NCBI GenBank assembly: GCA_964511085.1
Contig: CAZEDO010000003.1
Location: 3,883-67,882 of the forward strand
Reading direction: 5' to 3'
From: an uncultured Lentimicrobiaceae bacterium
GTDB taxonomy: Bacteria; Bacteroidota; Bacteroidia; Bacteroidales; DASVHX01
Length of the DNA: 64,000 bases
Part shown: positions 18,436 through 53,804 of the stretch, piece by piece
How the letters are laid out: each line of letters starts with the position of its first letter
Numbering within the stretch: the first letter of the stretch is position 1
The notes under the pieces: model-generated
Told to the model about the DNA's origin: nothing
The model's input: only the letters and a program-made list of their open reading frames with translations
Database searches by the model: none
Translations under genes and position numbers: made by a program

Positions 18436-18503
18436 TAAATGTATAAACGCACCTACTCATTGGGGTTTCTGAATTGATCTATTCGGTTTCCAAATTGACC
18501 AAT
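18436..18503 (-). promoter_or_regulatory. Promoter/operator module A (GAAACC-N15-GAAACC-N20-TACATTTA)
   Basis: In gene orientation, GAAACC sits at 18464-18469 (proximal) and 18485-18490 (distal). The -7-like box is at 18436-18443 and the ATTGACCAAT palindrome at 18494-18503. Coordinates +/-2 nt. Confidence 0.65.
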
Positions 18504-18556
18504 CAACAAGAATATGCTTTGAAAGTGTTATAGTTTAAGAGCAGGTGTATTTTTAT

Positions 18557-18565
18557 GGGGGGGGG
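18557..18565. repeat. Homopolymeric G9 tract (intergenic)
   Basis: Run of 9 G between the stop of 18589..22029 and promoter module A. This is unusual in such an AT-rich sequence. Confidence 0.8.
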
Positions 18566-18588
18566 ATATAGCTGGTGCATTAGCAGCA

Positions 18589-21500
18589 TTATGGTAAAGC
18601 AACAGAAACAGCTGCTGCTGCATTATTTTCCACAATAGACATATCGCTGGAATCAACCAGGCCATCTCCATTGACATCTTCAGCTAAATAACCACTTGAA
18701 GCAATAGCGGATAAATTTTCAACAATTGACATATCACCTGAGTCAACTATTCCATCCTGGTTTGCATCGCCTCCAAATATTGCATATCCACCACTTCCCA
18801 TTTGAACTAGATTGCTGCCAAATGCTTTTATTGGATTATCAAAGCTATAAGTTATATTGCTACCAGAAAATGATATTATAGAAGAAGAAACTGTAGCTAT
18901 GCTGTTGCGATGCCTGATAGCCACATAATATAAACTATTGTATATACCTGGCAAAGTGAGTGTTGCAGATCCATCAGTATTCAAGTCAATATTATAAGCA
19001 GTGTAAATAATGTTATTGTACAAGGATCCGTCATGCAGTTCTATAGTGATCTGATCAGCAATGGCACCTGCGAATTGATCGCCTGAAACACCCTGTGCTT
19101 TTCTCATGTAGCCAGGGCTATAATACAATCCTTCAAGGAAAAGGTTTAGGTTGAATGTTTTGTTTGAAGTTAAGGTTTGAGCAGCTTCGTTTGAATAAGC
19201 TGAACTCCCGGAAGCATTATAAGCTACAACACGGTAAGTATACAGAATTGAAGCAGAGAGTCCGGTATTACTGTAGTTTGTTATGTTTGCGCTTACTGTT
19301 CCTATTTCAGTAAATGCTCCGGCGTCAGCTTTGCGCTCAATCCTGAATCCTGTTTCATTTGATGAGTTGTCAGCCCACATAAGATTAATCTGGCCTGGTG
19401 GTACTGCTGTAGCGGTAAGACTGGAGGGTGCTGCCGGAGGCAGTGTATATTCATTTGCACCAATATCGGCGGCAGCGGTATAAAGAGCATTTCCCCAATA
19501 ATCTCTGCCTCCATTATTTGAAATTGTTTTACCGGTGTTTATACATGATGATCCGGACTGGAGTTTGTATCCACTTACTGTATTAAGACCAAATCCACCG
19601 CTTCCGGGACTCACCAGCTTTGGATCGGTGGTCACTTTATGAGCATCAGATGGTTCCGTTGAAGGATGAATTCCGTAAAAACAATTGTAATCAATAGACC
19701 TTGTATATCCTGTAGTCCAATCGTAGCTGGCCGTGGGACTGAGATTATAAATCAGGTTGTTGTTGAATGTATATATCCTTGATCCGGCACCACCAACATT
19801 GCGTTCAGAAATGATTAAAGGTGAAAGATTTGATGGTATATAAACAGTGTTATTGTATATACGAACGGAAGTAACAGGATAATTGATGCAAAAAATTACC
19901 CCTTGGTCATTCTGACTAATGTTATATCGGCAAACCACATTCACATCTGCCTGAACGGTACAAGTCCAGAAAAGACCGTGGGCATTATCGTGGCTGTAAC
20001 TATACTGCCAGTATGTATTTGGCGAACGCAGGTCGGCATCATATAAACTGCCGTCAGCATCAGGCGAATTATTATCGTATCCTTCATTGTACTGAAAAAC
20101 AGTTCCTGAACAGGCTGCTGAAAATATTGTATTTCCTGTGATTCCGTTTGCTGTATTATAACATACATTGTTTTCAATAACTCCTCCTTCAAACAGACGG
20201 ATTATCATCGCATTTTTGGAAATATTGGAGATCGTATTATTGCGGATTACTGCATTGGTGATCTTCATTGAGTTCCATTCTGCAGAATAAGGATCAAATC
20301 CATCATCCGTTACACACTCAGTAATTATTCCCTGATTCTCGCACGAAGAAATCACACAATTTTCGATAAGGATATCATTAAAATGAGTTTCCTGTGAAGC
20401 AACTGAAACAATTGCAAAACCAATTCCACCTGTACGCTTGTCTGTACGTTCTTGACCAACAGAGCCTTTAATGTTATGAATATACAGATTCTTCAAATAA
20501 ATATGATTGGCAGTACCAAAATTCTCTGCTTCAATCCGCACACCTCTGCGATCGCCTGCAGCAGCAGCATTATTCGTAATTTCCAGGTTATTGACTTCCC
20601 AGTATTGCTGATTATAAAGGTAAACCACTCCTGTTCCGGTCATACCATTTCCATCGATTATTGGTTTATTTCCTTCACCATACATATCGATAATAATTGG
20701 GCTTCCTGAAATTCCAGAGCCTTTTGGATATAACTTTCCGGTCCAGACTCCTCCAGCCTTAAATAAAATCCTGTTATTAGCAGTAAAAGTTGTTGCATTT
20801 ACTTTAGTAAGTGTTTTCCATGCGGTAGCAGAAGACAAACCGTTGTTTGCATCATTCCCTCCGGTAAAATCAATAAAATATGTAATTATTTCTATACTTT
20901 GAGTTGTAGCTGAAGCTTCGTTTGAATAAGCAGAGTTACCTGTTACATTATAGGCTAAAACACGGAAAGTATATAGCGTAGATGGAACAAGTCCGGTGTT
21001 GCTATAGCTTATTATGTTTGGCCCAACGATAGCTATTTGCGCAAATGTACCAGTTCCTGTCTTTCTCTCAATAATGAAACCGGCTTCATTACTGGCATGA
21101 TCGGTCCAGAAAAGTTGAATTTCACTTGAAGAGATACTATTGGCAGTAAGATTGTCGGGCGAAATTGGTAATGTTGGGGCACCCAATGTTGTAGCGGAAG
21201 ATTCGTTTGAATATGCCGAGTTCCCGAAAGTATTGAAAGCAAATACACGGTATGTATATAAAGTAGATTCATTAAGCCCCGTATTACTATAACTATTAAC
21301 ATTCGCACCTACAGATGCAATTTCGGTATAAGTACCTGATCCTGTCTTACGCTCAATTTTATAGCCGTCTTCATTGTTGGCATTATCTGTCCATGTTAAA
21401 TCTATCTGGTTTGAAGCTATTGTATTTGCTGCCAAATTAGTTGGGGCGTCAGGAACAACTGGGTTTGAAACGATTACAAGTTCAGGCCGGTTGGCCACTG

Positions 21501-22029
21501 CTTCTTTACTGCTGAAAGTGATAGTTGGCGTGGTGACTGTAGCCGAATAAACAACAATGCTTATTATTTTATCGTTTCCGGAGAACTGGCTTTGAACGTA
21601 GGTAGTTATATCCCATTCATAATATCCAGGTGATGCTAACAATGGGGTAGTAGCAATTATTGTTCCTTCTGCAGGTGCGTTGCTCCATGTTAATCCAGTT
21701 TCCGTCCATCCATCAGCTACCTGATGAATGTTCATAGAAACAGCTGTAGAGGTTGTAGCATATAATCTTATTATAGCGCTGGAAACCACGGTTACACCTG
21801 ATGTTGTTAAATCAAATTTTAGATATGCCTTACGAAAATTAACCGACGTAGCTTTTTTTACTATCAAATCCACTGCAGTTCCATAGTTTGTTGTGGCATT
21901 CGCATCATAAATGTACGAATCGGCAGTTGGGTTATAAGTTGCCGCCAAAGCAACCTTTCCTGGAATTAGCAAGGCTATTATTATGAAAAAAGAAGAGAAA
22001 AATGTTGTTTTTGATATGAATCGTTTCAT
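18589..22029 (-). CDS. Giant secreted enzyme: DNRLRE-like domain, 2x FN3, right-handed parallel beta-helix, FN3, dockerin-like C-terminal module
   Basis: 1146 aa. N-terminal signal peptide, then a DNRLRE-like region (TADSYIYDANATTNYG..KAYLKFDL) and FN3 repeats (IDLTWTDNANNEDGYKIERK). The beta-helix core is homologous to 59570..61930 over about 480 aa. The last 190 aa are FLEGLY beta-sandwich plus DANQDGIVDSGD / DVNGDGLVDSSD loops. Confidence 0.85.
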   Translation of the reverse strand: MKRFISKTTFFSSFFIIIALLIPGKVALAATYNPTADSYIYDANATTNYGTAVDLIVKKATSVNFRKAYLKFDLTTSGVTVVSSAIIRLYATTSTAVSMNIHQVADGWTETGLTWSNAPAEGTIIATTPLLASPGYYEWDITTYVQSQFSGNDKIISIVVYSATVTTPTITFSSKEAVANRPELVIVSNPVVPDAPTNLAANTIASNQIDLTWTDNANNEDGYKIERKTGSGTYTEIASVGANVNSYSNTGLNESTLYTYRVFAFNTFGNSAYSNESSATTLGAPTLPISPDNLTANSISSSEIQLFWTDHASNEAGFIIERKTGTGTFAQIAIVGPNIISYSNTGLVPSTLYTFRVLAYNVTGNSAYSNEASATTQSIEIITYFIDFTGGNDANNGLSSATAWKTLTKVNATTFTANNRILFKAGGVWTGKLYPKGSGISGSPIIIDMYGEGNKPIIDGNGMTGTGVVYLYNQQYWEVNNLEITNNAAAAGDRRGVRIEAENFGTANHIYLKNLYIHNIKGSVGQERTDKRTGGIGFAIVSVASQETHFNDILIENCVISSCENQGIITECVTDDGFDPYSAEWNSMKITNAVIRNNTISNISKNAMIIRLFEGGVIENNVCYNTANGITGNTIFSAACSGTVFQYNEGYDNNSPDADGSLYDADLRSPNTYWQYSYSHDNAHGLFWTCTVQADVNVVCRYNISQNDQGVIFCINYPVTSVRIYNNTVYIPSNLSPLIISERNVGGAGSRIYTFNNNLIYNLSPTASYDWTTGYTRSIDYNCFYGIHPSTEPSDAHKVTTDPKLVSPGSGGFGLNTVSGYKLQSGSSCINTGKTISNNGGRDYWGNALYTAAADIGANEYTLPPAAPSSLTATAVPPGQINLMWADNSSNETGFRIERKADAGAFTEIGTVSANITNYSNTGLSASILYTYRVVAYNASGSSAYSNEAAQTLTSNKTFNLNLFLEGLYYSPGYMRKAQGVSGDQFAGAIADQITIELHDGSLYNNIIYTAYNIDLNTDGSATLTLPGIYNSLYYVAIRHRNSIATVSSSIISFSGSNITYSFDNPIKAFGSNLVQMGSGGYAIFGGDANQDGIVDSGDMSIVENLSAIASSGYLAEDVNGDGLVDSSDMSIVENNAAAAVSVALP

Positions 22030-22071: not shown

Positions 22072-23151
22072 TCAAAAATTTATCTGTCTATAGATATCTG
22101 AATTTAATTGAACATTAGATTTCAGAACCAAGTTGTGTATATAATCTAAATATAATTTGTCGAGAAACGACGCCCTGATAGTTCTTTTACAATCATTAAA
22201 ACTCCTGTAGCCTAATAATCTCTTCTCTTTTACCTGAAAGATATATAATGCATCAGGATACTCTTTTACAGGGCTCCGTTCATTTATGAGCATCTTATTC
22301 GCTGCTTCTTTTACCAGTGATTTAACTGCATTGTCTTCTTCCTGCGAATAAACAGAATCGTTGTAAATGATATCTTCAACAGTTAACAAAACTGCCTGAT
22401 TTTTTTTATATTTTTCTTTAATTTCGGCAATATAGGATTCGTTCGTAAAAATGCTATCTGCAATATCAGTAAGCATTAGGGCTACATCTTTTCTTAATTT
22501 ACTATCCTCTTCAAAGTTATTTTCAGGTTTGATTTTCATACCTATCAGGCGAATTTTCATGTAATAACCCCTGCGATAAAGGCGATTCTTATCAATCTCA
22601 TAAACTTGCTTTAGTTTTTCATCTGAAATGCTGAAAACTTTTTCGTCTAACACGTTTTTCAGTTGGTTTACCATGTTAGTGAAAAGATAATTGTAATATA
22701 CATCTTCGCTGTACTGAACCGGCCCGTAAATTACTTTATTCAACTTCCTGGCTTCAAGCCTTCTATTGTTTTCCTTTTGGAGTAACCTAAGAAATTCCAT
22801 GTAGCTGATATCCGATACTATACCCCATTTTTTTGCGCTGATTTGCTGAATTTTGATCTGTTCCAACGTATCAAGGGTTTCCTTTTTCAATATATCAGAT
22901 GGTGTTTTACCGTCATAGGCTTTGCTCCAAAATTCATTATTGTATTCGGAACCATAGTTGATCCGGAAATACCGGATTACTTGCGAACGCCTTTTTTCAG
23001 CGCATTTCATAAATTCTCTTACAATTATTGGCTCACCATTAACAAAGGCTACTACAGAAGTATCTGCAAGCATTGTCTGGGCTATGCATGGGTAACCAGA
23101 AACTATGACAAACATGATCAAAATACATATTCTTCTCAAACATAAATGCAT
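22072..23151 (-). CDS. Secreted SurA-N-terminal-like / PpiD-like chaperone candidate (no PPIase motif seen)
   Basis: Signal peptide MHLCLRRICILIMFVIVSGYPCIAQ (start moved to the internal ATG at 23151). The VAFVNGEPIIVREF segment resembles SurA/PpiD N-terminal chaperone domains. It sits between two dockerin-type giant genes. Confidence 0.45.
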   Translation of the reverse strand: MHLCLRRICILIMFVIVSGYPCIAQTMLADTSVVAFVNGEPIIVREFMKCAEKRRSQVIRYFRINYGSEYNNEFWSKAYDGKTPSDILKKETLDTLEQIKIQQISAKKWGIVSDISYMEFLRLLQKENNRRLEARKLNKVIYGPVQYSEDVYYNYLFTNMVNQLKNVLDEKVFSISDEKLKQVYEIDKNRLYRRGYYMKIRLIGMKIKPENNFEEDSKLRKDVALMLTDIADSIFTNESYIAEIKEKYKKNQAVLLTVEDIIYNDSVYSQEEDNAVKSLVKEAANKMLINERSPVKEYPDALYIFQVKEKRLLGYRSFNDCKRTIRASFLDKLYLDYIHNLVLKSNVQLNSDIYRQINF

Positions 23152-23341
23152 TTCAGATTTATTAAAGCTCAATAACAACACAAACATCCTTATAAGATTC
23201 TTTGATGAATTAACAAATGTAATTAAGAATGTGCATCATAAAGTTATTGATTAGTCAACTCAGGTATCTTGAACGATCATTTACCTTACTAATTATTTGA
23301 AAACTATTTGTCAAAGCAATAGAATTCCAGGTAATACTAAT

Positions 23342-26300
23342 TTATGGAGTGGAAGATGCAACAGCAGATGCAGCATTGTTTTCAACAATCGACATGTCAC
23401 CGCCATCTATAAGGCCGTCTCCATTAGCATCTTCAGCTAAATATCCATTTGAAGCAACAGCAGAAGAGTTCTCAACAGGTGCCATATCGCCGGAGTCAAC
23501 TATTCCATCCTGGTTTATGTCTCCTCCATATATAGCATATACACTACCATCCCTAAGGAGGAGGTTGCTGCCAAAGGCTTTTTCAGGTGAATCAAATGCA
23601 AATCCGATTACTCCATTAGCAAAGGAAACAGGAAAAGCACAAGTTGTTGTAATACTGTTTCGATGCTTTACAGTAATATAATAAGAACTTCCCAGGGTAG
23701 CGGGAACTACAATTGAAGCATTTCCAACTGTGCTAAGATCCACATTATTGAAAGAATACACCTTTGTAGCATAGTTTGCAGCGTTATGCAATTCAACTGA
23801 TATCTGATCGGCAATATCGCCTGGAAATTGATCACCCATATCACCCTGTGCTTTTAACATCGTGCTATTTCCATTGTAAAGTCCCTCCAGAAATAATGCT
23901 AAATTTAGAGTCCTGTTAGCGACAGCATCATTTGAATATTCAGAATTGCCAGCAACATTATAAGCGCAAACACGATATGTATAGGATTTTGGTTTGGCAT
24001 TAACTTTACTCCATTCCTGGGCAAAAAAAGATGCCAACCATGCCGAAATCTCCGTTTCGTGCCCAAGACAGCTATGAGTAGCACCAGGAATGATATGTAG
24101 TTCGTTTGTAACACCAACAGCATCAAGTGCATTGTGCAAATCAATACTATTCTGTGGAAGAATTGTTACATCTGCATCACCATGAACCAATATAGAAGGC
24201 ACATCTGTTGATTGAAGGTAATTAGCAGTTGAATAAGGAGGTGAAGGATAAACCCATCCCCTCATTTCAGGTTCAAGTCCTCCCCAAAGAGTAGCATTAG
24301 CAACAATTCCAGTCTTGTTCCAAAGAGTTGTCAGGTACTGATTTTCTGGCGGAGATATTGCTGTTGGGTCTGGACCATCGAACTGGCATACTGTTTGAGC
24401 GGTTCTGCCACCTGCTGAACCACCAGCTATAAAGATAAGGTTTGGATCAATATGATATGTTGCTGCGTTTGCTTTTATCCAGCTAATGGCTGCGTTTGCA
24501 TCCCTTGCTGCATCCTGAAGGGCTGGAAACTCGGAAGCCTGAGTGGGCATATCGGCTGCTAAACGCAGTCTGTAGTCGATGGACATGCAAACGTATCCGC
24601 GCTTTGCAAACCTTGTACTGTAATCCACAATATAACCCTGGGTCCTGTATGAATCTGTTCTGAATCCTCCACCATGAATCCAAATAATCACCGGACGGGC
24701 TTGCGTGGCATCACCAGTTGGTTGATATATATCCAGCAGGAGCTCAGTTGGAACTCCTTTGTAATTAATTACATCGGCAAATTTTACTCCCGAAGTAACT
24801 GTTATAGCAGCAAACCGGTCAGCCGGGATAAAAGCACCAGGGTCAAGTCCTGGCATTGAATTACCAGAAGTAGTCACATCTGCTCCAGTGGTAGCTACTT
24901 GAGTAAAAAGTCCGTTGTCAGGTTTGCGCTCTATCCGAAATCCTGCTTCAGTTGAATTATTATCCGACCAGCTAAGATTGATCTGAGTTGCTGAGGATGG
25001 AATAGCTGATAAACTATATGGAGCTCCCAGTGCCACTGAGAAATTCACCCTGTAAGTATTCGTGGATATTCCATCGGGTGCAGTTACAAGAACAGTTGTT
25101 GTGCCTGGCATACTTGTAGCATTTGAAACAAGTATAGTTGAAGCAGGTTGAGTTGCTGTTGCTGTAACTATTGGCACTGTTGAAGTTCCGGCAGGTAATA
25201 TCACATTATATGAGTAGGTGGTTGGGGAGAATCCTGATATTGTAGTACTACCGACTTTCAAGTCACTAAGTGAGGCATCTGCCGTAGAATTCATGGTAAG
25301 GCTGATATCATCTATGTAAAACAAACCTTGTGAAGTTGTACCTGTATTTGCTGTTCCACGTAAACTCAACATTATACCGGAACTGTTATCATTCACAGGA
25401 ATAATTACCTGGTGCCATATTGTAGTACTCCCATCCATTGGCATTGGATCGGTGCTGATGGTTGTCCAGCTTGAACCACCGTCAGTTGATTTCTCAACAT
25501 AAAGATGCAGTTGGTGCAAAGGATCGGCATCCAGTACCCTCACATAAAATTCCAAAATCCCGGCTGTATTGCATGAAGGAGAAATTAATGTTCCTCCATC
25601 GAGAGGTGCTGTCCATTTAAATTTTGGACATGATAATCCTGGTGAAAAGAGGCCAACTCCATTTGAAGCGGAATTGCTTATATTTCCAGTAAAAGACCAA
25701 CTTGCAGGTGGAAAAGCGGCAAATCCCTCCTTGAAATGATAAGCCATTCCTGAAGATATATTAAATACAACTGAATAAGTTTTAGTAGTAACTCCGTCCT
25801 GTGCTGTTACTACAACGGTTCCTGTTCTTTGGGCCAATGTTCCTATAAGGTTTGCAGGTGGTACAAATCCCAAAGTTGCACCGGGTTGGGCTGTAGTAGC
25901 TACCAACGTCAACGAAGATACTTCATCTGGCAGTTCTGTTGTATAATTTAATACAGAAGAAGAAAAGCCGGTGACCATAACACTTTGGCTTCCTCCTGAA
26001 GGCAACCACCTGAGGTTACTCAGATTGGCATCGTTTGAAGGAGCTGCCAATGTAAACGCAACGGTATAGGTTAATTGGGTTATTCCATCCTGTGCTGTAA
26101 CAAGCAAGCTTGTGGAACCTGGCAATGAAACAGCTGGAGTAATAGCAACATTAGCCAATCCGAACGTCGGAGTAGCTGTAACTGTTGGTACAATTGTCGT
26201 ACCAAAAGGTAGTTCAACTGAATAAGTATAAATCGCGGATGCAAAACCTGCAACGGTAGCTCCGTCTATTTTAAGATCATTCAAACTGGCATCAGTACTG

Positions 26301-27508: not shown

Positions 27509-27576
27509 CTAAAATAGATCAGAGTACTCTATGGCGGGTTTCGGAATTGTTCAATTCGGTTTCTTTATTGCCCAAT
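27509..27576 (-). promoter_or_regulatory. Promoter/operator module B (GAAACC-N15-GAAACC-N20-TATTTTAG)
   Basis: Proximal repeat at 27537-27542, distal at 27558-27563. Box at 27509-27516 and ATTGCCCAAT palindrome at 27567-27576. Confidence 0.65.
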
Positions 27577-27600
27577 CAACCAGTGATGATTATTTTTATC

Positions 27601-27643
27601 AAAAAAAGCATTTACTAATGGAAGACCACCGGTAAATGCTTTT
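27601..27643 (-). terminator. Rho-independent terminator after miniprotein gene 27717..27950
   Basis: AAAGCATTTAC / GTAAATGCTTT stem followed, on the minus strand, by a T7 run. The arm sequence is shared with the terminator at 31635-31674. Confidence 0.75.
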
Positions 27644-27716
27644 CATTTTAAGCTAATAGCTTTATGCTTATATAAGTTACTACATACTAATAACCAAGGC
27701 TTTCGTCATTCTTCAG

Positions 27717-27950: not shown

Positions 27951-27965
27951 GATTTTAAATATTTA

Positions 27966-43836: not shown

Positions 43837-43853
43837 TTTGAGAGATTAATTTG

Positions 43854-45119
43854 TTAAAAACGATTTTTCCAGGCCCATAATCCAAGAGCAGGATTGGAAA
43901 TAAAATACACTTCTTCCCCATTCACATCATTAAATCCGTCCTTTAGCTCAGAAGGATTATATTTTTTCATCATTTCATTAAGATTTCCATAGTTAAAATT
44001 TACACTTTCGATCTCCTGTCGGGTAAGTTTGCCAGGACAATAAGTAACCCTGAATCTGTTTTCGTGGGATCCGTGAATAAGATGCGCGGCTGCACTTAAA
44101 TTTTCACGTAGCTCAAGATTATTCTTAACCAATTTTAATATTTCCGGGGTTGTGAGATAGCCATATTTACGAATCAAGCGGTCGATCTCCTTATCCTCTC
44201 CAAATTCCTTTAGCCCTGGTGCAAGAACTATTAATTCTCCTCCGTCAGCCAGAGCCATTCGGGTTCGATAGATACTTTTGTTTCCCAGCCATGTACTTTT
44301 AAACTCAGTAGGATCAAGGTAAACCACCACTTTCTTCAACGGCTCATCCAGTAATTCGAAGTTCACTTTAAGTGATAATTCAGCAGCTTTATCAAAACAC
44401 TCACTACTGTTGCCAATAAAAAGACCTTTAACCGCCATGTTGCCACTATGGCCATTTCCTATAACAGTATGTATATAAACGATTGGCAGATGTGCGGCGA
44501 AATGCTCTGATGCATAATTGAGAACCTTCCTTACCGGATTATCAGCCCGTCCCATAATTCGCTCCATTCCATAGGCAGCTCCCAGAAAATGGCTTTTATT
44601 TATCCCTTCTTTACCTCCTGTGCCAACAAATATATTTTTGTTGTAATTAGCCATGCCAATCACTTCGTGGGGAACAACCTGACCAATAGATAGGATGAGA
44701 TCAAAATTTCCTTCAACCAGAAGTTTGTTTACCTGCGCCGGCCACGAAAAATCAACCTGATCCTCTGAAACTTTTCGCAGATATTCAGCCGGCACTTCAC
44801 CCAGGGTAACAATATCGCTTCTCCAGTTGTGCACCCGAAAAAGTGAATGAGGTACTTTCCCAAACATACGGGTGAGTTCGGTTTCCGACATTGCGACATG
44901 TGTTCCAAGAGCCGGCAGGATATCTGTCACCGCATTTCCATAATATTGCCATGCCATTTCAGTAAGTATTCCAGCCCTGGAATGGAAACGCGTGAAATCC
45001 GGAGGCACAATTAAAACCTTACGCCGCGGCCCCAACTTATCAAGTGCTTCATATAGCCCTTTTCTAAGATCTTCAGAACTAAACTCCGAATCTACTGAAC
45101 CGTGGTCGTAATAAATCAT
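43854..45119 (-). CDS. LarA-like (DUF2088) putative nickel-pincer-dependent 2-hydroxyacid racemase/epimerase
   Basis: 421 aa. The N-terminal KVLIVPPDFTRFHSRAG pattern and overall length fit the lactate racemase N-terminal domain family. The substrate is not inferable. Confidence 0.6.
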   Translation of the reverse strand: MIYYDHGSVDSEFSSEDLRKGLYEALDKLGPRRKVLIVPPDFTRFHSRAGILTEMAWQYYGNAVTDILPALGTHVAMSETELTRMFGKVPHSLFRVHNWRSDIVTLGEVPAEYLRKVSEDQVDFSWPAQVNKLLVEGNFDLILSIGQVVPHEVIGMANYNKNIFVGTGGKEGINKSHFLGAAYGMERIMGRADNPVRKVLNYASEHFAAHLPIVYIHTVIGNGHSGNMAVKGLFIGNSSECFDKAAELSLKVNFELLDEPLKKVVVYLDPTEFKSTWLGNKSIYRTRMALADGGELIVLAPGLKEFGEDKEIDRLIRKYGYLTTPEILKLVKNNLELRENLSAAAHLIHGSHENRFRVTYCPGKLTRQEIESVNFNYGNLNEMMKKYNPSELKDGFNDVNGEEVYFISNPALGLWAWKNRF

Positions 45120-45207
45120 ATTAATATTTTGAAATGCTCCGATCGTTTTAATTCTGAAACATTTGCCAGTATTATACTTTGGATCTATGCAATAATGGAA
45201 TCGCTAA

Positions 45208-46287
45208 CTACCTTCTTACCCTGGCATTTCCCTGCCAGATGCTCCATATCATTTCTTCATCCGCAGGTTGGGCATAGTCGGTTAAAAAAGTTGTAGCCAG
45301 CGCACCACTTGCCCATCCAAATTGCATGCACTTTTCAGGTTCCCATCCTTTTAAAATTCCGTATAGTAATCCCCCAACAAAACCATCCCCACCACCAATG
45401 CGGTCGAGAACATCAATTTCACGTGGCTCTATCACATGCCATATATCTCCTTCAAGCATTATTGACCCCCATAAATGCTTATTAGCACTGACAACCTGAC
45501 GCAATGTGGTAGCAAATACTGAAGCATTTGGAAAAGCCTTTTTTACACGAAAGATCATCTCTTTGAAACTCCCTATCTGAGCTTCGATTCCCTGGCCACC
45601 TGCCTTTGGGCCATCAATACCCAGGCATAATTGAAAATCCTCTTCGTTTCCAACGAGGACATCAGATAATGATGCGATTTCTGTAAAAATAGCTTTCAAT
45701 TCCTTATCCCGCCCTTTCCAAAAGGAAGCACGATAGTTGAGATCGAAAGATATGCAAGTGCCTGTCTTTTTAGCGGCTCGTGCCAATTCCAGGCAAAAGG
45801 TTCCAGTTTCGGGCGACAAAGCAGCTATTAAGCCTGAGAGATGAACAATCCGGACTCCTTCTTTTACAAAAATACGGTCCAGATCAAAATCTTTAATATT
45901 TAACATACGACCTACTTCTCCAGCCCGATCATTATGCACACGAGGCCCGCGTGAGCCAAATCCGCTATCTGCTATATTGAACTGGTGGCGAAATCCCCAG
46001 GGATCACCCTGTTCTATTTCTTTCCCCTCATAAGTCATATGTCTGCTAGCAAGGTTGCTTTTAATAAACTGAGCTACCGGACTGTCCTTCACGAAAGTTG
46101 TAAGTACTTTCACCGGAAGCCCCAGGTAGGCCGAAATGCTTGCAACATTGGTTTCTGCACTGGTCGCCTGCATCTTAAAAGTATCGCTGCTATGAACAGG
46201 TTGTCCGTTAACCGGAGTTATGCGCACTCCCATGCTGGTCGGAACCAGGAGAGAAAACGCAAAGTCTGTTTTAAGTTGTATGCTCAT
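45208..46287 (-). CDS. kdgK: PfkB-family sugar kinase, 2-dehydro-3-deoxygluconokinase-like
   Basis: 359 aa. C-terminal DRIGGGDGFVGGLLYG (PfkB signature 2). Lies in a hexuronate context. Confidence 0.75.
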   Translation of the reverse strand: MSIQLKTDFAFSLLVPTSMGVRITPVNGQPVHSSDTFKMQATSAETNVASISAYLGLPVKVLTTFVKDSPVAQFIKSNLASRHMTYEGKEIEQGDPWGFRHQFNIADSGFGSRGPRVHNDRAGEVGRMLNIKDFDLDRIFVKEGVRIVHLSGLIAALSPETGTFCLELARAAKKTGTCISFDLNYRASFWKGRDKELKAIFTEIASLSDVLVGNEEDFQLCLGIDGPKAGGQGIEAQIGSFKEMIFRVKKAFPNASVFATTLRQVVSANKHLWGSIMLEGDIWHVIEPREIDVLDRIGGGDGFVGGLLYGILKGWEPEKCMQFGWASGALATTFLTDYAQPADEEMIWSIWQGNARVRR

Positions 46288-46312
46288 TTTGTAAATTTAA
46301 TTTAATCTGATA

Positions 46313-47164
46313 TTACACACCACTATATGCATTAAATCCTCCATCCACCAGCAAAACTGTACCAGTCACAAATCGTGAGCTATCGGACAAAAGGTATGCT
46401 ACTGCCCCAAGTAATTCATCAGCTTCGCCAAAGCGACCCATGGGAGTTCCGTTTATAATTTTCTCTCCACGGGGCTTTAGATTTCCTGTTGCTTCATCAA
46501 TAAGAAGGAACCTGTTCTGATTGGTAAGAATGAAGCCTGGTGATACTGCATTAACACGGATACCTGTCTTTGCCAGGTGAACTGCCAGCCACTCTGTAAA
46601 GTTATTAACGGCGGCCTTGGCAGCTGAATAAGCAGGTATTTTAGTAAGTGAACGGAAGGAATTTAACGATGAAATATTTAACACCGCACCCTTTCCCGTT
46701 TCAAGCATATCAGTTGTAAGGACAATTGTCGGGAGTAAGGTCCCAAGGAAGTTCAGATCAAATACCCGTTGAAATCCTTCTATTTCCAAGCCATAGAATG
46801 AACCTTCAAGATTGCTGATATTGTCTTTTGTTATTTCTTCAACCTGGGTTGTTGCCTTAGGTGAATTCCCCCCTGCCCCATTAATAAGAAAATCAATCTT
46901 ACCAATCTCCCTGTTTATTATCTCCTTTGCAGCAATTAACGATTGTTTATCAAGAACATCAGCTGAAACCCCAAAAGAAAAGCTACCAGTTTGCGCTGTT
47001 ACTTCAGAAGCTGTTTTTTTTGCAGCATCAATATTAATATCCAATATCACCGTTTTCATCTCAAGCAGGCCGAGTCCCAGAGCAATCGCATTCCCTATCA
47101 CTCCTGCACCTCCGGTTATAACTACTATTTTATCTTTCAGGTCATCAAATCCAGGTTTAATCAT
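46313..47164 (-). CDS. SDR-family oxidoreductase (UxuB-type fructuronate/mannonate reductase candidate)
   Basis: VITGGAGVIGNAIA (TGxxxGxG) and YSAAKAAV (YxxxK). Adjacent to kdgK. Confidence 0.7.
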   Translation of the reverse strand: MIKPGFDDLKDKIVVITGGAGVIGNAIALGLGLLEMKTVILDINIDAAKKTASEVTAQTGSFSFGVSADVLDKQSLIAAKEIINREIGKIDFLINGAGGNSPKATTQVEEITKDNISNLEGSFYGLEIEGFQRVFDLNFLGTLLPTIVLTTDMLETGKGAVLNISSLNSFRSLTKIPAYSAAKAAVNNFTEWLAVHLAKTGIRVNAVSPGFILTNQNRFLLIDEATGNLKPRGEKIINGTPMGRFGEADELLGAVAYLLSDSSRFVTGTVLLVDGGFNAYSGV

Positions 47165-47419
47165 ATAATTACATTTTAATATTTTGAAGTTCTTTTTGTA
47201 AAGAATTGCATTTCAGACGTGTTCTTTCTTTATCATGCAAATCGATGGCAATGCGAATTAAATTGAGTTAAATCAAAAATACACAATCATACTCTATAAC
47301 AAACGAATATTAAGTGAATTCCGACAACTAATATTCAATATAATAAATGGATTTGCTTCATCAGACAAAATACTCCGGCAGTAGAAATACCAATAGACAC
47401 AATAAGGCACAAACAGAAA

Positions 47420-49261
47420 TTAATCATATTTTAAGCTAACCTGTTTGTAAAAATCCTTCAATGTATAAAAGGCCTTTTTTTTATTTCCTGTTTCTGAGAT
47501 CAATCCTTTCCTGTTCCATCCGTCCTGAATTCCGGGAAGAACACGCCTGGGAGAGCGGAAATCAACAAGTATCCAGGGAGTAGTTCCGCGTAGTTGGGGA
47601 ATTTTATCCACCATTTTCAGGTTTTCTTTATAGAAATACTCCTGGTATTCCTCACTCCAACGGGTTAAACTATCGCCATGCATTCCTCCTAAAGCATCAG
47701 CGCCAAGTTCCGAAATAATCACTGGTTTATTCTGATTAATGACCCATTGAATTTTAGCACATTTATCGGGCAATCCGTCATACCACCCTATATATTGGTT
47801 AAAGCTGACGATGTCAACAAATTCAGCAAAAGGGTCAGTGATTGTCCGAACCATTTCATTTTCCTTTGACGCATGCTGTTCAAGCGCGGCACTGATAAGA
47901 CGTGTGTCATCTATATTGCGGGCAGTATCAACCAGCCGGTGCAGGAAACTAATTCTGTCGTCGTTAACAGGAGTTTCGTTGGCCATTGACCAAATAATAA
48001 CAGCCGCCCTGTTTTTATCCCTGGATATTATTTCTTTCAGCTGATTACTGGCAGTGGCAAATGTTTCCGGGTTTGTCCATTGGATAGTCCAATACACAGG
48101 ATTTTCCTCCCAAACAAGGATACCCATTTCATCAGCAAGGCGTATGACATTCTCGTTGTGCGGGTAATGTGCAAGGCGTACAAAATTACAGCCTAATTCC
48201 CTAACCCAGTTCAATAGCATAAGGGCATCTTCGCGGGAATACGCCCGCCCTCCACGAATCGCATTTTCTTCGTGGATAGAAATTCCTTTCAGGAATATTG
48301 ATTTACCATTTAGTATAATATCAGTTCCCTTTGTTTCAATAGTGCGGAAACCAATTTTGTCAGAAACTTTATCTGTTTCAGTACTGATAAATACGTCATA
48401 AAGGACAGGTGTTGTTGGGGACCAGCGTTTGATATTCTGTACTTTAAGATCTATACTCACATATCCATTGGCATCAGAAATCAATTTGCTCTTGATTTTA
48501 AGCTCCGGGATGCTCAGCTCTATCGTTTTGCCTGCTTTGTTAGCTCCATCAAGCTGAATATACCCGCCAATATTATCTGAAGAAGATTTTCTTAATTGTA
48601 TAAAATAGTCCCTGATAAATGTTGCCGGAATTTCTACCAATTGCACATCACGGGTAATACCTCCGTAATTCCACCAGTCCGTATTCAAAGTAGGAACTTC
48701 ATCTGCTTTGCGTTTATTATCAATTTTAACAATCAGGAAATTGCCCTTTTCTTTTACAATATCGGTGATTTCGAAGTTAAATGGTGTAAAACCTCCTTTG
48801 TGGAACCCAAGTTTCTTTCCATTCAGATAAACATCTGACCTGTAATTTGCTGCTCCAAAATAAACGAACAGTCTGTTACCAGGAGCATTTATTGCGTAAT
48901 CAAAAGCCTTTTTGTACCATATTGTCCCTTCATAATAGAACAGGTTTTCCTTTTGGGAATTCCAGTCCCTAGGTACTAGTAATGTTGGTGATTTATCAAA
49001 ATCGTATTCAATCCTTTCAGTTTTATCTTTTGGTTTTGTATTGGTATAAAATGCCCTGTCCTGTGGCTTGGGATTCTGATCATAAGGTATTGTCCTGTAA
49101 TCATAATATCCCATTTCATAAGGGTCAACTATATAATTCCATTTACCATTCAGAGATTGAACATCACGGTTATATATATTTTGAATCAATTTATCCTGGC
49201 TTATTGAGGGCAGCGTTAAACAAGCTAGAAATATAATCAGGGCATTTTTTTTCTTATTCAT
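47420..49261 (-). CDS. Glycoside hydrolase family 2, beta-glucuronidase-like (secreted)
   Basis: 613 aa with a signal peptide. WSMANETP (acid/base) and IISELGAD (nucleophile) correspond to the GusA WSIANEP / ITEYG motifs. Confidence 0.75.
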   Translation of the reverse strand: MNKKKNALIIFLACLTLPSISQDKLIQNIYNRDVQSLNGKWNYIVDPYEMGYYDYRTIPYDQNPKPQDRAFYTNTKPKDKTERIEYDFDKSPTLLVPRDWNSQKENLFYYEGTIWYKKAFDYAINAPGNRLFVYFGAANYRSDVYLNGKKLGFHKGGFTPFNFEITDIVKEKGNFLIVKIDNKRKADEVPTLNTDWWNYGGITRDVQLVEIPATFIRDYFIQLRKSSSDNIGGYIQLDGANKAGKTIELSIPELKIKSKLISDANGYVSIDLKVQNIKRWSPTTPVLYDVFISTETDKVSDKIGFRTIETKGTDIILNGKSIFLKGISIHEENAIRGGRAYSREDALMLLNWVRELGCNFVRLAHYPHNENVIRLADEMGILVWEENPVYWTIQWTNPETFATASNQLKEIISRDKNRAAVIIWSMANETPVNDDRISFLHRLVDTARNIDDTRLISAALEQHASKENEMVRTITDPFAEFVDIVSFNQYIGWYDGLPDKCAKIQWVINQNKPVIISELGADALGGMHGDSLTRWSEEYQEYFYKENLKMVDKIPQLRGTTPWILVDFRSPRRVLPGIQDGWNRKGLISETGNKKKAFYTLKDFYKQVSLKYD

Positions 49262-49489
49262 AAATTAAATTTTAGGCTGATAATTTCAACATCAATTCAG
49301 GATAGGAGAAATAGGTAAATAATCAAATTGATAGTATTTGATATAAATACTATTGTAGGTAAGCAAAACAAAAAAAAACAGGAAATCAGGCATAGACTAA
49401 ACAATATGAAAAGCCTTACGTAAAAGGAACAATTTGATGAAGGAGCAATCCGGATCTAGCATCCGGATAAATCCATAATTATCAATCTA

Positions 49490-51001
49490 TTAGTGTTTTA
49501 CGAATTTACTTGTTATTGTTTTGTTTTCTCCCTTCAGGGTGACAAAATAGACGCCACCAGGTAAACTGTGAATATCAAAAGTTTTAATGGATTGCCTGAT
49601 ATCTTCAGTCATTAACCGGCGCCCAGTCAAATCAGATACAGTTAGAGAAGTGAAACAACGATCAGTCGATTGGACTGTTAATGTATTGTGAGCCGGATTT
49701 GGATAAACAGAAATCCTGGTATCAGAATTAACTTCTGAAACAGAAAGTCCGCTTACCTTTTTCCCTTTGAGTGAAAGGTCATCTATCCAGATACGTGTTA
49801 ATCCTTCGGCAGTTAATGTAGGTGTAAATATAACCTGAGTACTATCGTCTTCTCCAATAAAATAAGTAAATTTTTTCCATTCGGCAGTCATTTCCGAAGA
49901 GGTAATATTGCCTAATGTAATACCTATGCCACCTAGGACTTTCTTTTGAACTAACAGGTTTTCGACTCCATCAGGCTGGTCAATAGCAAGCCAGAAAGTG
50001 AGCGTATCTGATTTAGTGTACTTTGCAGTATTAAGAAATCCGATTTTATCAGGTTGCCCTCTCATAAACTTCAAAGCAGCCAGACCGAAAAATTCTCCAT
50101 GATTTCCCCCTCCTCCAACTACCGTATTTGTTGTGTAAGTATAACCACCACGCCAACCCGGTAATGGCATTACTCCATCACCCGTATTTACAAACCCGAC
50201 TTTATAAATATAATCTGAAACGGTGAATACGATCTTGTAGTTTTTAGTAACAGTTCCGTCCTGGGAAGTAACAGCAACAGTACCTGTTCTGTCGGCTTCA
50301 TAACCTCTGAGATTTGTAGGATTAGTTATTGTAATTGTAGCACCTGGATTATTAGGTGTACCAGCCATTTCTATATGTTCCACACTATATGGAACTTCCA
50401 TTATGTAATCTAAATTTGCGGCAGTAAAACCATCAATACTGATGCCATTATATGTAAGATCGGTTAGGGTGGCATCATTTGGCTCTATTGCCATTTTGGT
50501 AACACTTATATCATCAATATAACACAGGCCGAGCGAAGCTGTTCCATTAACCGAAGCTGCATGAAACCTAAGATATATTTGAGTAGCTGCATCGTTTACT
50601 TGTATATTAACAAGCTGAAATATAGAATCATTTTCCATATTGCAAGGATCTTTTCCAATTTCTGTCCAGGCTACCTGATCGTATGATTTTTCGATCATCA
50701 GGTGAAAGTCGCTCAATGTACTTGTATCCCTGACTTTAACATAAAATTGCAATGTGGCAGCGGTATTTAATGCTTTGATCATTAAAAACGATTCGTTAGG
50801 CTTTAATTTTGCAGAATATGTGCCAGGATTCAAATCTTCATTATTATGAGTTAATGAATAAGTAACATTCGTTGCAATCCAGCCTACGGGCGGCGCATTC
50901 AAAACAAAGGTTTCCTGAAAATGATAGATCTGCGCGACACTAATTCCGGAGAAAGATAGCGAAAGCGTGATAATTGACAGAATGAGTAGATTTTTTTTCA
51001 T
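49490..51001 (-). CDS. T9SS cargo with MAM/choice-of-anchor-J-like domains and a cadherin-like beta-sandwich
   Basis: 503 aa with a signal peptide. LCYIDDISV and IWIDDLSL motifs, DATLTDLTYNGISIDGF cadherin-like domain. C-terminal CTD ISVYPNPAHNTLTV...GVYFVTLKGENKTITSKFVKH. Confidence 0.8.
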   Translation of the reverse strand: MKKNLLILSIITLSLSFSGISVAQIYHFQETFVLNAPPVGWIATNVTYSLTHNNEDLNPGTYSAKLKPNESFLMIKALNTAATLQFYVKVRDTSTLSDFHLMIEKSYDQVAWTEIGKDPCNMENDSIFQLVNIQVNDAATQIYLRFHAASVNGTASLGLCYIDDISVTKMAIEPNDATLTDLTYNGISIDGFTAANLDYIMEVPYSVEHIEMAGTPNNPGATITITNPTNLRGYEADRTGTVAVTSQDGTVTKNYKIVFTVSDYIYKVGFVNTGDGVMPLPGWRGGYTYTTNTVVGGGGNHGEFFGLAALKFMRGQPDKIGFLNTAKYTKSDTLTFWLAIDQPDGVENLLVQKKVLGGIGITLGNITSSEMTAEWKKFTYFIGEDDSTQVIFTPTLTAEGLTRIWIDDLSLKGKKVSGLSVSEVNSDTRISVYPNPAHNTLTVQSTDRCFTSLTVSDLTGRRLMTEDIRQSIKTFDIHSLPGGVYFVTLKGENKTITSKFVKH

Positions 51002-51196: not shown

Positions 51197-51264
51197 TAAA
51201 AGTATAGCAGAAGGAAATGCAAGAGGTTTCTATGCAGTTCAAATAAGTTTCTTTTGCGACCAAT
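51197..51264 (-). promoter_or_regulatory. Promoter/operator module F (GAAACT-N15-GAAACC-N20-TACTTTTA)
   Basis: Proximal repeat at 51225-51230 and distal (degenerate, GAAACT) at 51246-51251. Box at 51197-51204. The implied leader is about 190 nt. Confidence 0.55.
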
Positions 51265-51313
51265 AATGTGTGTTAATAGTAACAGGTTCATTTTTTTCTT
51301 TTCGACAGGCATG

Positions 51314-51341
51314 AAAAAAGCCCTGAAAAACCAGGGCTTTT
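51314..51341 (-). terminator. Rho-independent terminator after 51408..53570
   Basis: AAAGCCCTG / CAGGGCTTT stem with a 6-nt loop, followed by a T-run on the minus strand. Confidence 0.75.
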
Positions 51342-51407
51342 AACCGAAAAAATCAAACTAACCAAATTAATAATCAAAAACCAACCTTATTATGTTAAAC
51401 AAACAAG

Positions 51408-53570
51408 TTAGAAGATACAGACCTTTCTTGTTTTCATTCCTTCTACAGTACTTACCATTATTAAATAAAAACCTTTTTCCCAACCTGATACATTAATAAC
51501 TAATTCGTTTGAAGGCGATTTCAGGTTGGCAATTTTTTGACCTGCAAGGTTATAAACCTCAATTACCTCTATTTCAACTGTAGAAATAATACAGATCCTA
51601 TCTGATGTGATTGTTGGGTAAACATGAATCCCATCATAGCTTATATTGCCAATGCCAACATTTGAATAAAAATTGGCAACAAGATTATGGTTCTCTGAAA
51701 CATTCGTTAATGTTAATTCTATATTGGTACCCAGAATAACTCCACCTTCTGTCCAATTCAAAAAAACATAATTCGGATTTGCAATAGCCGTAAGCGTTAT
51801 GCTTCCGCCAAGTGGCACATTGCCGGTTCCTGTTATTATTCCTCCTTCACTGGGGTTTGCTGTTGCTGATACTGTGAATACATCAACACTCTCAATAAAG
51901 TTCCCCAATATAGTATGGTCGGTAATTACATTAGTTAGAGTAAGTACTGGATCTGTTCCTAAGATGGTTCCGTTTTCGCTCCAATTTTCAAATATAAATC
52001 CTGTATTTGCAAAAGCATTTAGTGTAATATCAGAGCCATAACTAATGGAGCTGGAACCAGTAATTGTTCCACCTTCAGGAGGAGTAGGTAAGCCTGTAAC
52101 TGTAAGAGTTTGTAAAACAAACTGGGCAACAACATCATGATTAGATGAAACATTCGTAATTACTAAAACAGAATTCGATCCAATTACATTCCCTCCTTCT
52201 GTCCATTGTGCAAAAACGTAACCTGTATTCTGAAAGGCCGTGAGTGTAGCAGTCCCACCATAGGCAACAGTTCCGGTTCCTGTAATAGTGCCACCATCAG
52301 AAGGCGAGGCTGTAGCAGTTATCTGAAATGAGGCTGGTACAAAATTGGCAACTAATGATCTGTTACCACTAACAAGGAATGTATAAACAGAGTTTGAACT
52401 TACTACAGAGCCTCCGTCAGTCCAGTTTGCAAACATATAACCTGTTGCAGCAGAAGCAGTAACTGTGGCATTAAACCCTTCACCATAAACCCCGCCTCCA
52501 GAAACAGTTCCGGTAGCTGCCGGTAAAACTGCAAGATCAACAGTATAATATGCGTAAGCATGGTTAACTGTATAGGTTTTTGTTGTTGTTCCATTTTCAG
52601 CCGTTACCAGAATACTTGAAATTCCAGGAATTGAAGCAGGAGGTGTAATCACTACTGAGGCCGCCCAATCTGTTGGGGTAGCCAAAACAATTACGGATGT
52701 CTGACCTGCAGGAACAGTATCATTATAAGTAACAACGTCAGGACTAAAACCGGTAACGCTCAAAGCATCAACTTTAATGTTACTCAAAGTAGCAATATTG
52801 CTTATATTCAGTACTTGTTGCCAGGTTTTGGCAACCCTGACCCCATCTACAATCACAGTGGGTGAAGATCCGGTTGTTCCCTGGCGTAAAAGTACCGATC
52901 CAATCCCAACATCAGAGGCAGTAATATCAGAGGCAACAGCTGAAGGAGAAGGTTCAGGACTTCCAATCACCGGATTTACAAAAAGACATGTAATATCGTT
53001 GGTTGTTCCTTCAATAATCTCATATTTTATTACGAGCAAATAAGTAGTGTTTAAGCTATAAATAAACGGTGTATAATCAGCTGATGCAGGTGCCGTGATA
53101 GCACCTTTAGATATACCAAAGGCCAAATTATTTGAACCATCAACCTTTGCATATACTCTTCCTCTGAAGGTTGTATTTGTCGGAGAAGTTGGTGATTCCT
53201 TGAACGAAATGAATGCATCTCCTGTAGTGGCTGAAGTTACTTTAGCCAGGCAGGCCATATATATTAAGCTTCCTGGAAGGGTTTGCTTGGTAAACCCTCT
53301 GAATAAATCCTGCCCTGTAGTACCAACAGCAGCAGCATTTCCGATTCCTGAACAAGGAAATCCGGCATGTGACAGACCTTCGCTGACAACGAAAATTGGA
53401 TTAATCAAACTACTAGTACCCGACTGGATCAGCCAATTATGCCAGGCAAGAGAATCGCCGGAAGGATAGTCGAAATTATCGAACATCAACACCTGTCCCC
53501 TGCCGGTTATTGAAATGCCTGCCAAAACAGACAAAGCAATTAAAAAATTACGAATGGTATTAGTTTTCAT
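51408..53570 (-). CDS. T9SS cargo: LamG-like N-domain, cadherin-like domain, 4-5 InlB-B/Listeria-Bacteroides-type repeats, type-A CTD
   Basis: 720 aa. The N-domain is homologous to 15560..18385 and 23342..27460. Repeats carry GYVFAQWTEGG / GFIFENWSENG / NYVFLNWTEGG. CTD is IHVYPTITSDRI...FYLIMVSTVEGMKTRKVCIF. Confidence 0.8.
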   Translation of the reverse strand: MKTNTIRNFLIALSVLAGISITGRGQVLMFDNFDYPSGDSLAWHNWLIQSGTSSLINPIFVVSEGLSHAGFPCSGIGNAAAVGTTGQDLFRGFTKQTLPGSLIYMACLAKVTSATTGDAFISFKESPTSPTNTTFRGRVYAKVDGSNNLAFGISKGAITAPASADYTPFIYSLNTTYLLVIKYEIIEGTTNDITCLFVNPVIGSPEPSPSAVASDITASDVGIGSVLLRQGTTGSSPTVIVDGVRVAKTWQQVLNISNIATLSNIKVDALSVTGFSPDVVTYNDTVPAGQTSVIVLATPTDWAASVVITPPASIPGISSILVTAENGTTTKTYTVNHAYAYYTVDLAVLPAATGTVSGGGVYGEGFNATVTASAATGYMFANWTDGGSVVSSNSVYTFLVSGNRSLVANFVPASFQITATASPSDGGTITGTGTVAYGGTATLTAFQNTGYVFAQWTEGGNVIGSNSVLVITNVSSNHDVVAQFVLQTLTVTGLPTPPEGGTITGSSSISYGSDITLNAFANTGFIFENWSENGTILGTDPVLTLTNVITDHTILGNFIESVDVFTVSATANPSEGGIITGTGNVPLGGSITLTAIANPNYVFLNWTEGGVILGTNIELTLTNVSENHNLVANFYSNVGIGNISYDGIHVYPTITSDRICIISTVEIEVIEVYNLAGQKIANLKSPSNELVINVSGWEKGFYLIMVSTVEGMKTRKVCIF

Positions 53571-53749
53571 GCTATCAGATTTAGTTGTTATTATGTATAG
53601 AATTCGTTCTGAGATTTAAGAATAACAAAGTTTAACTGTTATAAATATATTATCAGTAGTAGCATTGTGACGATAGCTACTAAGAGTAGCGTTTGCCAGA
53701 TCAAAAGCTTTTTTGCTTTCATTCGCATATATCAGGTAATTTGGATAGG

Positions 53750-53804
53750 CTAAATTAGAATATGAAGCAGTGAATCGGGTTTCTTTACAGTTCAAATAGG
53801 TTTC
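53750..53804 (-). promoter_or_regulatory. Promoter/operator module E (GAAACC-N15-GAAACC-N20-TAATTTAG)
   Basis: Proximal repeat at 53778-53783 and distal at 53799-53804. Box at 53750-53757. The implied leader is about 175 nt. It lies about 175 nt downstream of the HTCS stop. Confidence 0.6.

Follow-up and report, generated by a model that had tools for sequence, protein, structure and literature searches.

Why do six short, closely similar promoter-like elements stand before genes for giant secreted proteins of unrelated families in one stretch of DNA, and which regulator reads them? The stretch (hereafter the window) comprises 64 kb of contig CAZEDO010000003.1 (assembly GCA_964511085.1) from an uncultured Lentimicrobiaceae bacterium, and the elements, modules A to F, had been described in an initial annotation made from the letters alone. 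Judged by their sequence, the six repeats are genuine and conserved, each combining a promoter with an operator. They are very probably activator-dependent promoters of the primary sigma factor, fused to the operator of a protein of the hybrid two-component system type (HTCS) encoded at 53981-58105, and would join a polysaccharide utilization locus (PUL) and genes for cargo of the type IX secretion system (T9SS) or with dockerin-type ends into one regulon. This reading draws on comparative sequence data and on analogy with described HTCSs.

The modules are far more frequent than chance would allow. The pattern GAAACC-N15-GAAACC, with at most one mismatch, occurs seven times in the window, always on the minus strand, against an expectation of 0.25 derived from 100 dinucleotide-preserving shuffles (largest shuffle value, 2). 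Six of the seven matches are the modules, whose distal hexamers have their 5' base at 18490 (A), 27563 (B), 31599 (C), 36258 (D), 51251 (F) and 53804 (E). The seventh, at 36079-36105, was discarded as a chance match: it lies inside the coding region of 32054-36142 and has neither flanking boxes nor a -7 box. Read on the minus strand, the hexamers are exactly 15 nt apart in all six modules, and exactly 20 nt separate the proximal hexamer from a TAnnTT(T/A)(A/G) box. The fixed geometry claimed by the initial annotation therefore stands, as does its reading of the distal repeat of F as GAAACT; its six 8-mers are correct in sequence, with those of E and F interchanged. When periods of 15-28 bp were compared in the window, 21 bp gave six matches and each other period none or one. 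A position weight matrix built from the sites retrieves only modules A-F in the 64 kb, with no score between 12 and 45 bits, and all 33 sites that were compiled have the 21-bp period.

Alignment of the window copies with those of related genomes gives the operator a finer structure than a pair of hexamers. It consists of two 18-bp bipartite half-sites, TTGRNC-N6-GAAACC, which are separated by a 3-bp gap and so repeat with a 21-bp period; the consensus of the 33 sites is TTGanc-aAtnnA-GAAACC-tan-TTGAAC-naTnna-GAAACC. A TTGRNC box stands 12 nt before each GAAACC, including the one preceded by the inter-repeat spacer. Two earlier statements are revised by this structure. The spacer, described as differing in sequence between copies, is not free to vary throughout: it contains a conserved TTGAAC-like box. 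The ATTGnnCAAT element (imperfect in C), reported as a separate palindrome of modules A-C, belongs to the distal half-site as its upstream box, and its TTGRNC core recurs in the spacer. In module E and in the copy before susC (see below) the upstream box of the distal half-site is degenerate.

The primary sigma factor of the phylum, sigma-ABfr, has the consensus TAnnTTTG at -7 and TTTG near -33 (PMC7366714). The -7 type box TACTTTTG, reported at 15322-15329 before tRNA-His (15345-15419, plus strand), is indeed there. In the modules, TTTG is not present at the -33 position and the proximal GAAACC occupies that place: the proximal half-site ends 20 nt before the -7 box in the window and 19-21 nt before it when relatives are included, and it therefore takes the place of the missing -33 element. 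The invariant 20-nt spacing first proposed thus applies within the window and is relaxed by one nucleotide either way in relatives. That a 21-bp direct repeat in place of the -33 element marks an activator-dependent promoter, as had been suggested, is supported by the phylogenetic footprints, by co-occurrence with the HTCS and by the published layout of HTCS sites, which are considered in turn below.

A strict form of the pattern (36 bits) was scanned over species-representative genomes amounting to 596 Gb, in which we estimate that about 17 matches would arise by chance. The scan returned 38 loci. About 17 are in metagenome-assembled genomes (MAGs) of uncultured Bacteroidales and have the TTGAAC boxes; each of these sites either precedes an orthologue of one of the window's cargo genes or adjoins an orthologue of the HTCS gene, as identified by tblastn. 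About 20 matches in unrelated phyla (cyanobacteria, Nitrospirota and others) were rejected; they are without the TTGAAC box, and their number is close to the chance estimate of about 17. At L029, L009, L031, L021, L004 and L015 the sites adjoin HTCS orthologues of 64-72% identity, followed by orthologues of c720 and c503, the genes for the 720- and 503-residue T9SS cargo proteins behind modules E and F, while at L010, L013, L019 and L033 they lie upstream of orthologues of the giant genes behind modules A-D.

Altogether the modules are conserved as footprints in about 15 related uncultured Bacteroidales genomes. Over the interval from the HTCS stop codon to the c720 start, aligned for six species (alignment A1), the conserved segments are the operator, the -7 box and a small open reading frame (ORF), and nothing else; over the c720-c503 intergenic region with its F-type site (alignment A2), they are the operator, the -7 box and a terminator hairpin. 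Flanks and leaders have diverged, with operator and -7 box fixed, across species whose proteins are 44-84% identical. The F-type sites of L009 and L021 escaped the strict pattern because their -7 box stands at 21 nt. Phylogenetic footprinting, put forward with the first description of the modules, thus finds both the repeats and their spacings retained in otherwise diverged intergenic DNA.

The HTCS gene (minus strand) encodes a Reg_prop/Y_Y_Y periplasmic sensor followed by HisKA, HATPase_c, receiver and AraC-type HTH_18 domains. Module E lies downstream of it, 177 nt from its stop codon (earlier given as about 175 nt). The claim that it is the only regulator of the window also holds: no other recognisable DNA-binding regulator is encoded there, and none was found in four orthologous loci of 22-24 kb. 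Upstream, on the same strand, the PUL continues with genes for a 470-residue protein to which no family could be assigned (58133-59545), a CBM96 protein with a T9SS C-terminal domain (59570-61996) and SusD (61996-63630). The right edge of the window falls before susC. The only public contig found to extend beyond it (L001, from GCA_049317905.1, 25 kb) carries an identical SusD and adds 6 kb, in which susC occupies L001 6961-9978. A further module upstream of susC had been anticipated, and it is present at L001 6863-6930 as GCAACT-N15-GAAACC-N20-TAAATTTG; its TTGAAC box is in place, its distal half-site is degenerate and its -7 box is perfect. As the HTCS gene is the last of the susC operon, it would be autoregulated.

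The association with the HTCS also appears at loci obtained by protein homology, independently of the motif. A metagenome scan with SusC yielded one close orthologue with its upstream region (L040, 76% identity); the remaining 79 loci served as a negative control. Four further loci (L120-L123) were fetched through homologues of the HTCS, which belongs to a well separated orthogroup: 27 clusters show 55-84% identity, two more show 44-45%, and no other exceeds 39%. The module is present in all six orthologous susC promoters (that of L001 and five others). In L120 and L121 (HTCS identity 61%) the gene order is that of the window, with a module upstream of susC and another directly downstream of the HTCS gene. 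In L122 (45%) and L123 (44%) the order is rearranged to GH2-CBM96-HTCS-susC-susD; a module is still found directly downstream of the HTCS gene, where it now precedes susC, and a second copy precedes the GH2 gene. The hexamers drift in these more distant loci (AAAACC, CAAACC, GGAACT, AGAACG), with no loss of the TTGAAC box or of the 21-bp period, and the -7 box keeps its distance. All 13 motif-independent sites have the 21-bp period; their -7 box stands at 20 nt in eight, at 21 nt in three and at 19 nt in one, and was not found in the remaining one. The 79 control susC loci (748 kb), 18 of which encode paralogous HTCSs, gave three relaxed operator matches and none with a -7 box at 19-21 nt. The orthologous loci (94 kb) gave eight relaxed matches, six of them with a -7 box, and one more site that was found by eye. 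The sequence data thus favour the adjacent AraC-type HTCS, already named as the candidate regulator, in that modules accompany its orthologues down to 44% identity and even after rearrangement.

Within the HTCS, conservation is highest in the DNA-binding domain, at 79-85% identity compared with 64-72% overall. Its two predicted recognition helices have residues specific to the orthogroup, MSRSVLYRKLKA and N(S/T/A)KHFST(A/S)F; the corresponding segments of paralogous HTCSs read MSRTVLYKKVQ and DRKHFSKEF.

Two variants of the arrangement were also seen. In one relative (L018, CAIKNA010000311, minus strand, 969-1040) three consecutive half-sites in place of two, with GAAACC at three 21-bp steps, precede the -7 box. 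In two MAGs of Bacteroides spp. (L014 2356-2408 and L032 4187-4239) a sulfatase-like gene is preceded by GAAACC-N15-GAAACC-N20-TATCTTTG and oriented divergently from an HTCS gene whose product is only 27% identical to the window HTCS; the upstream box differs (CCGGAAAT and TCGGATAT). The latter sites suggest, from their sequence, that half-sites of the GAAACC type recur in other HTCS subfamilies.

We infer that the HTCS binds the modules and activates transcription from them. In the proposed mechanism the periplasmic sensor would detect an oligosaccharide released from the target glycan, and the kinase would phosphorylate the receiver, whereupon the AraC domain would be freed. The two AraC-type domains of an HTCS dimer could then occupy the tandem half-sites, the two helix-turn-helix units of each domain reading one box each, and the 21-bp period would place both domains on the same face of the helix. 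The proximal half-site, at about -37 to -32 from the presumed transcription start, would substitute for the -33 element, and RNA polymerase would be recruited in a class-II-like manner. The regulon so defined would include at least seven transcription units within about 48 kb: the susC-susD-CBM96-470aa-HTCS unit; a unit for the small membrane peptide and the 720-residue T9SS cargo protein; one for the 503-residue T9SS cargo protein; two for paralogous T9SS giants, each followed by a miniprotein gene; and two, behind modules A and B, for dockerin-type giants.

The modules could instead be operators of a regulator encoded outside the window, such as a LytTR-type protein, a stand-alone AraC/XylS protein or a paralogous HTCS, with the adjacent HTCS a mere neighbour or one input. 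LytTR sites also typically have a 21-bp period, and modules A-D stand 18-35 kb from the HTCS gene. However, neither the window nor the four orthologous loci encode such a protein, and a module is found at the PUL's own susC promoter and directly 3' of the HTCS gene in all orthologous loci, those of 44-45% identity with rearranged gene order among them. Modules with a -7 box are not found in the loci of the 18 paralogous HTCSs, and an 18-bp bipartite half-site suits an AraC domain with two helix-turn-helix units better than the 9-10-bp site of a LytTR protein does. An outside regulator is accordingly judged distinctly unlikely, and of the activator families originally listed the AraC type fits, while the OmpR/PhoB and LytTR types find no support. 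Two further readings concern the nature of the sites themselves. Many -35 elements of extracytoplasmic function (ECF) sigma factors contain GAAC or GGAAC, so that the proximal GAAACC might be an AAC-type -35 element with an incidental upstream copy. Such promoters would not explain why a primary-sigma TAnnTTT box at 19-21 nt is conserved in place of a CGTC-like -10 element at 16-17 nt, nor why conservation is as strong in the distal half-site and in both TTGAAC boxes as in the proximal hexamer; with no ECF or anti-sigma gene in the window, we consider this very improbable. The copies might also be non-functional relics of duplicated 5' ends, given that the genes behind A and B and those behind C and D are paralogous pairs, that c720 shares an N-terminal domain with the A and B genes, and that the 20-nt segments of C and D are alike. 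At least four unrelated gene starts nevertheless stand behind modules, including susC, the small ORF and c503, and the footprints contradict this idea: operator and -7 box have stayed fixed, and in position relative to each other, where flanks and leaders have diverged. That the copies are relics is extremely improbable.

A different question is whether the HTCS would act at the modules as a repressor or dual regulator, since the proximal half-site overlaps the -33 region and a bound protein could occlude RNA polymerase. A constitutively active soluble fragment of the HTCS BT4124 down-regulated the target PUL genes in B. thetaiotaomicron (PMC13292587), and activation by the window HTCS is therefore not guaranteed. 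On the other hand, the modules have no -33 TTTG at the right distance and their -7 boxes are below consensus, so that in the absence of an activator they should be weak promoters; the general description of HTCSs is that they induce their PULs in response to glycans (PMC3878776); and the authors of the BT4124 study warn that, once detached, the fragment is unable to dimerise as the full-length protein does (PMC13292587). Repression at the modules is on balance quite improbable. Like the BT4124 result, some other points weigh against activator-dependent promoters under the window HTCS, the interpretation we prefer. The -7 boxes mostly end in A or AG instead of the consensus G, and at the site L123 1456 no -7 box can be recognised at 17-24 nt. 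The HTCS is assigned as the regulator on the grounds of adjacency, co-occurrence and analogy; a second regulator of the same specificity may be encoded elsewhere, and the regulon may extend beyond the cluster.

The modules and their putative target genes, all on the minus strand, are arranged as follows. Module A (18436-18502) has a distal half-site at 18502-18485 (TTGGTC-N6-GAAACC), a proximal one at 18481-18464 (TAGATC-N6-GAAACC) and, after 20 nt, the -7 box TACATTTA at 18443-18436; its putative target, 15560-18385, encodes a 941-residue Big_5/Cadherin-like/dockerin protein. Module B (27509-27575; half-sites 27575-27558 and 27554-27537, -7 box TATTTTAG at 27516-27509), with an orthologous site in L010, precedes 23342-27460, which encodes a BD-FAE esterase/dockerin protein of 1372 residues. 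It probably also drives 22072-23187 (371 residues) and 18589-22029 (1146 residues, CBM96/fn3/dockerin), neither of which has a module of its own. Module C (31545-31611; half-sites 31611-31594 and 31590-31573, -7 box TATTTTTA at 31552-31545; orthologous site in L019) has as putative targets 27966-31481, for a protein of 1171 residues with a T9SS C-terminal domain, and the gene for a 77-residue miniprotein, 27717-27950. Module D (36204-36270; half-sites 36270-36253 and 36249-36232, -7 box TATATTTA at 36211-36204; orthologous site in L033) is similarly placed before 32054-36142, for a protein of 1362 residues with fn3 and T9SS C-terminal domains, and the gene for a 78-residue miniprotein, 31710-31946. 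Module F (51197-51263) comprises half-sites at 51263-51246, with the GAAACT hexamer, and 51242-51225, and the -7 box TACTTTTA at 51204-51197; orthologous sites were located independently of the motif at L009 4121 and L021 3850. Its putative target is c503 (49490-51001), for a Cadherin-like/MAM protein with a T9SS C-terminal domain, behind a 5' leader of about 195 nt. Module E (53750-53816; half-sites 53816-53799 and 53795-53778, -7 box TAATTTAG at 53757-53750) precedes a small ORF (53639-53728) and then c720 (51408-53570), for an InlB B-repeat protein with a T9SS C-terminal domain. The first large genes behind the modules, said earlier to represent at least three unrelated families, form four groups: those of A, B and c720, which share the N-terminal domain; those of C and D; c503; and susC.

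Terminator-like hairpins with T-runs, also on the minus strand, lie directly upstream of three modules. One at 27597-27644 closes the module C unit just before module B (minimum free energy -24.6 for a 98-nt stretch), one at 31630-31677 closes the module D unit just before module C (-28.6), and the hairpin AAAAGCCCTGG...CAGGGCTTTTTT at 51313-51341, whose position is conserved in relatives, closes the module E unit before module F. Modules B, C and F therefore each open a separate transcription unit. The 5' leaders of E and F gave no Rfam match; that of F shows no conservation in relatives, and the conserved stretch in that of E is the small ORF.

This ORF (MRMKAKKLLIWQTLLLVAIVTMLLLIIYL; minus strand), the first gene behind module E, encodes a peptide with one predicted transmembrane helix. 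Its relatives are 27-31 residues long, with a basic N-terminus, [W/Y]Q, one hydrophobic helix and a C-terminal LIIY[LFM], and the peptide matches no Pfam or NCBIfam family. The ORF directly follows the HTCS-proximal module in nine of ten orthologous loci (the window, L029, L031, L004, L009, L021, L121, L122 and L123; it is absent in L120), whether the next gene is c720 or susC, and no comparable ORF was found behind any of 20 paralogous HTCS genes. By analogy with MgrB, which acts on PhoQ, the peptide could be induced by the HTCS and, as its partner, exert feedback on this membrane-embedded sensor kinase, a suggestion that we regard as speculative and rather doubtful. If it were true, this regulon, which would respond to a glycan, would include an internal feedback loop of a kind not described for HTCSs and would govern a clustered surface and secreted apparatus of T9SS- and dockerin-type giant proteins.

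Several other features of the cargo units may be recorded. The products of 15560-18385, 18589-22029 and 23342-27460 have in common a C-terminal region of about 190 residues with 45-57% mutual identity, in which a dockerin type I repeat is indicated by Pfam matches near threshold; the remaining cargo proteins have a T9SS C-terminal domain at their ends. The miniproteins 27717-27950 and 31710-31946 are paralogous and consist of a signal peptide, a Gly/Pro-rich stretch and a hydrophobic helix with a basic tail; their tails score 23.3 and 25.8 bits against PID-CTERM (NF046080), near-threshold values for a cut-off of 26. A gene for a rhomboid-family protease is found at 9919-10542. The 371-residue product of 22072-23187 has no Pfam match and a weak likeness to the lacto-N-biosidase chaperone LnbY (58.8 bits, with a cut-off of 400 bits), a similarity from which it may be a dedicated folding helper.

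Between the cargo units, at 36907-49261 on the minus strand, lies a group of genes for an MFS transporter, glucuronate isomerase UxaC, a GDSL esterase, 6-phosphogluconate dehydrogenase, a 2-hydroxyacid dehydrogenase, a LarA-like protein, a PfkB kinase, an SDR protein and a GH2 protein, indicative of sugar-acid catabolism. The sugar-acid genes also come after the cargo genes in L121. None of those in the window has a module of its own; in particular, 49262-49489, upstream of the GH2 and hexuronate genes, lacks the paired motif, as reported before, and no module is found in the corresponding region of L121. The nature of these genes hints that the target glycan contains uronic acid.

For one HTCS orthogroup of apparently freshwater, uncultured Bacteroidales, the analysis defines both the operator (two copies of TTGRNC-N6-GAAACC with a 21-bp period) and the grammar of the promoter. 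It reveals no new regulatory principle. The sequence evidence ties the PUL to six or more additional units for giant proteins of the T9SS and dockerin types, so that these giants can be annotated as parts of a single glycan-response regulon and given priority in biochemical work.

Among known systems, the class-II promoters of the AraC/XylS family (araI1-I2 of araBAD, and XylS at Pm) have two half-sites that form a direct repeat of 21-bp period; a domain with two helix-turn-helix units reads each of them, and the promoter-proximal half-site overlaps the upstream promoter element. The modules differ from these in using the -33/-7 grammar of Bacteroidetes and another sigma factor instead of -35/-10, and in that the proposed regulator is a membrane-embedded kinase-receiver-AraC fusion and not a soluble ligand-binding protein. 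The LytTR boxes of AgrA, ComE and PlnC/D likewise repeat directly every 21 bp, immediately upstream of the core promoter, and often control secreted products. Their half-sites, however, are single boxes of 9-10 bp, 12 bp apart, whereas those of the window are bipartite and 18 bp long, and neither the window nor the four orthologous loci have a LytTR gene alongside the modules. SusR, as a PUL activator of the Bacteroidetes, also uses direct repeats upstream of susC-type promoters; its repeats are 67 or 77 bp apart (PMC3878776), and it belongs to another regulator family, with another DNA-binding domain, than the window HTCS.

The closest parallels are the HTCS operators of B. thetaiotaomicron. 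Ravcheev et al. (2013; RegPrecise) predicted operators for 16 of its HTCSs, direct repeats lying on average 21 bp apart (PMC3878776), and footprinting has confirmed tandem half-sites for BT4124 (PMC13292587). In the supplementary alignments the site ends 19-21 nt ahead of TAnnTTTG at BT0367, BT4108, BT4114, BT4116 and BT2818, and the BT0268 site (HTCS_Aga-1, BT0267) reads TGGTCC-N6-GGAAAG / TTGAAT-N6-AGAACT-N20-CACTTTTG (PMC3878776), resembling the window motif in both sequence and register. It is the one similar site in the published B. thetaiotaomicron lists, which contain no identical GAAACC motif. The half-sites, of 14-16 bp, are comparable, and the shared features include tandem repeats of about 21 bp and the location of sites at the promoters of susC and of enzyme genes in the PUL that encodes the HTCS. 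Since the layout is identical, the architecture described here is the known operator-promoter design of HTCSs, and the operator-to-(-7 box) spacing of the published alignments holds in a distant lineage, a help when regulons are to be predicted from metagenomes. What is new is this motif, its lineage and how large the regulon is and what it contains: the consensus is TTGRNC-N6-GAAACC, the host is an uncultured, non-gut member of the Bacteroidales, the cluster is larger, with at least seven promoters, a small membrane-peptide gene comes first behind the HTCS-proximal site, and the targets are mostly giant T9SS- and dockerin-type proteins in place of the classical periplasmic glycoside hydrolases.

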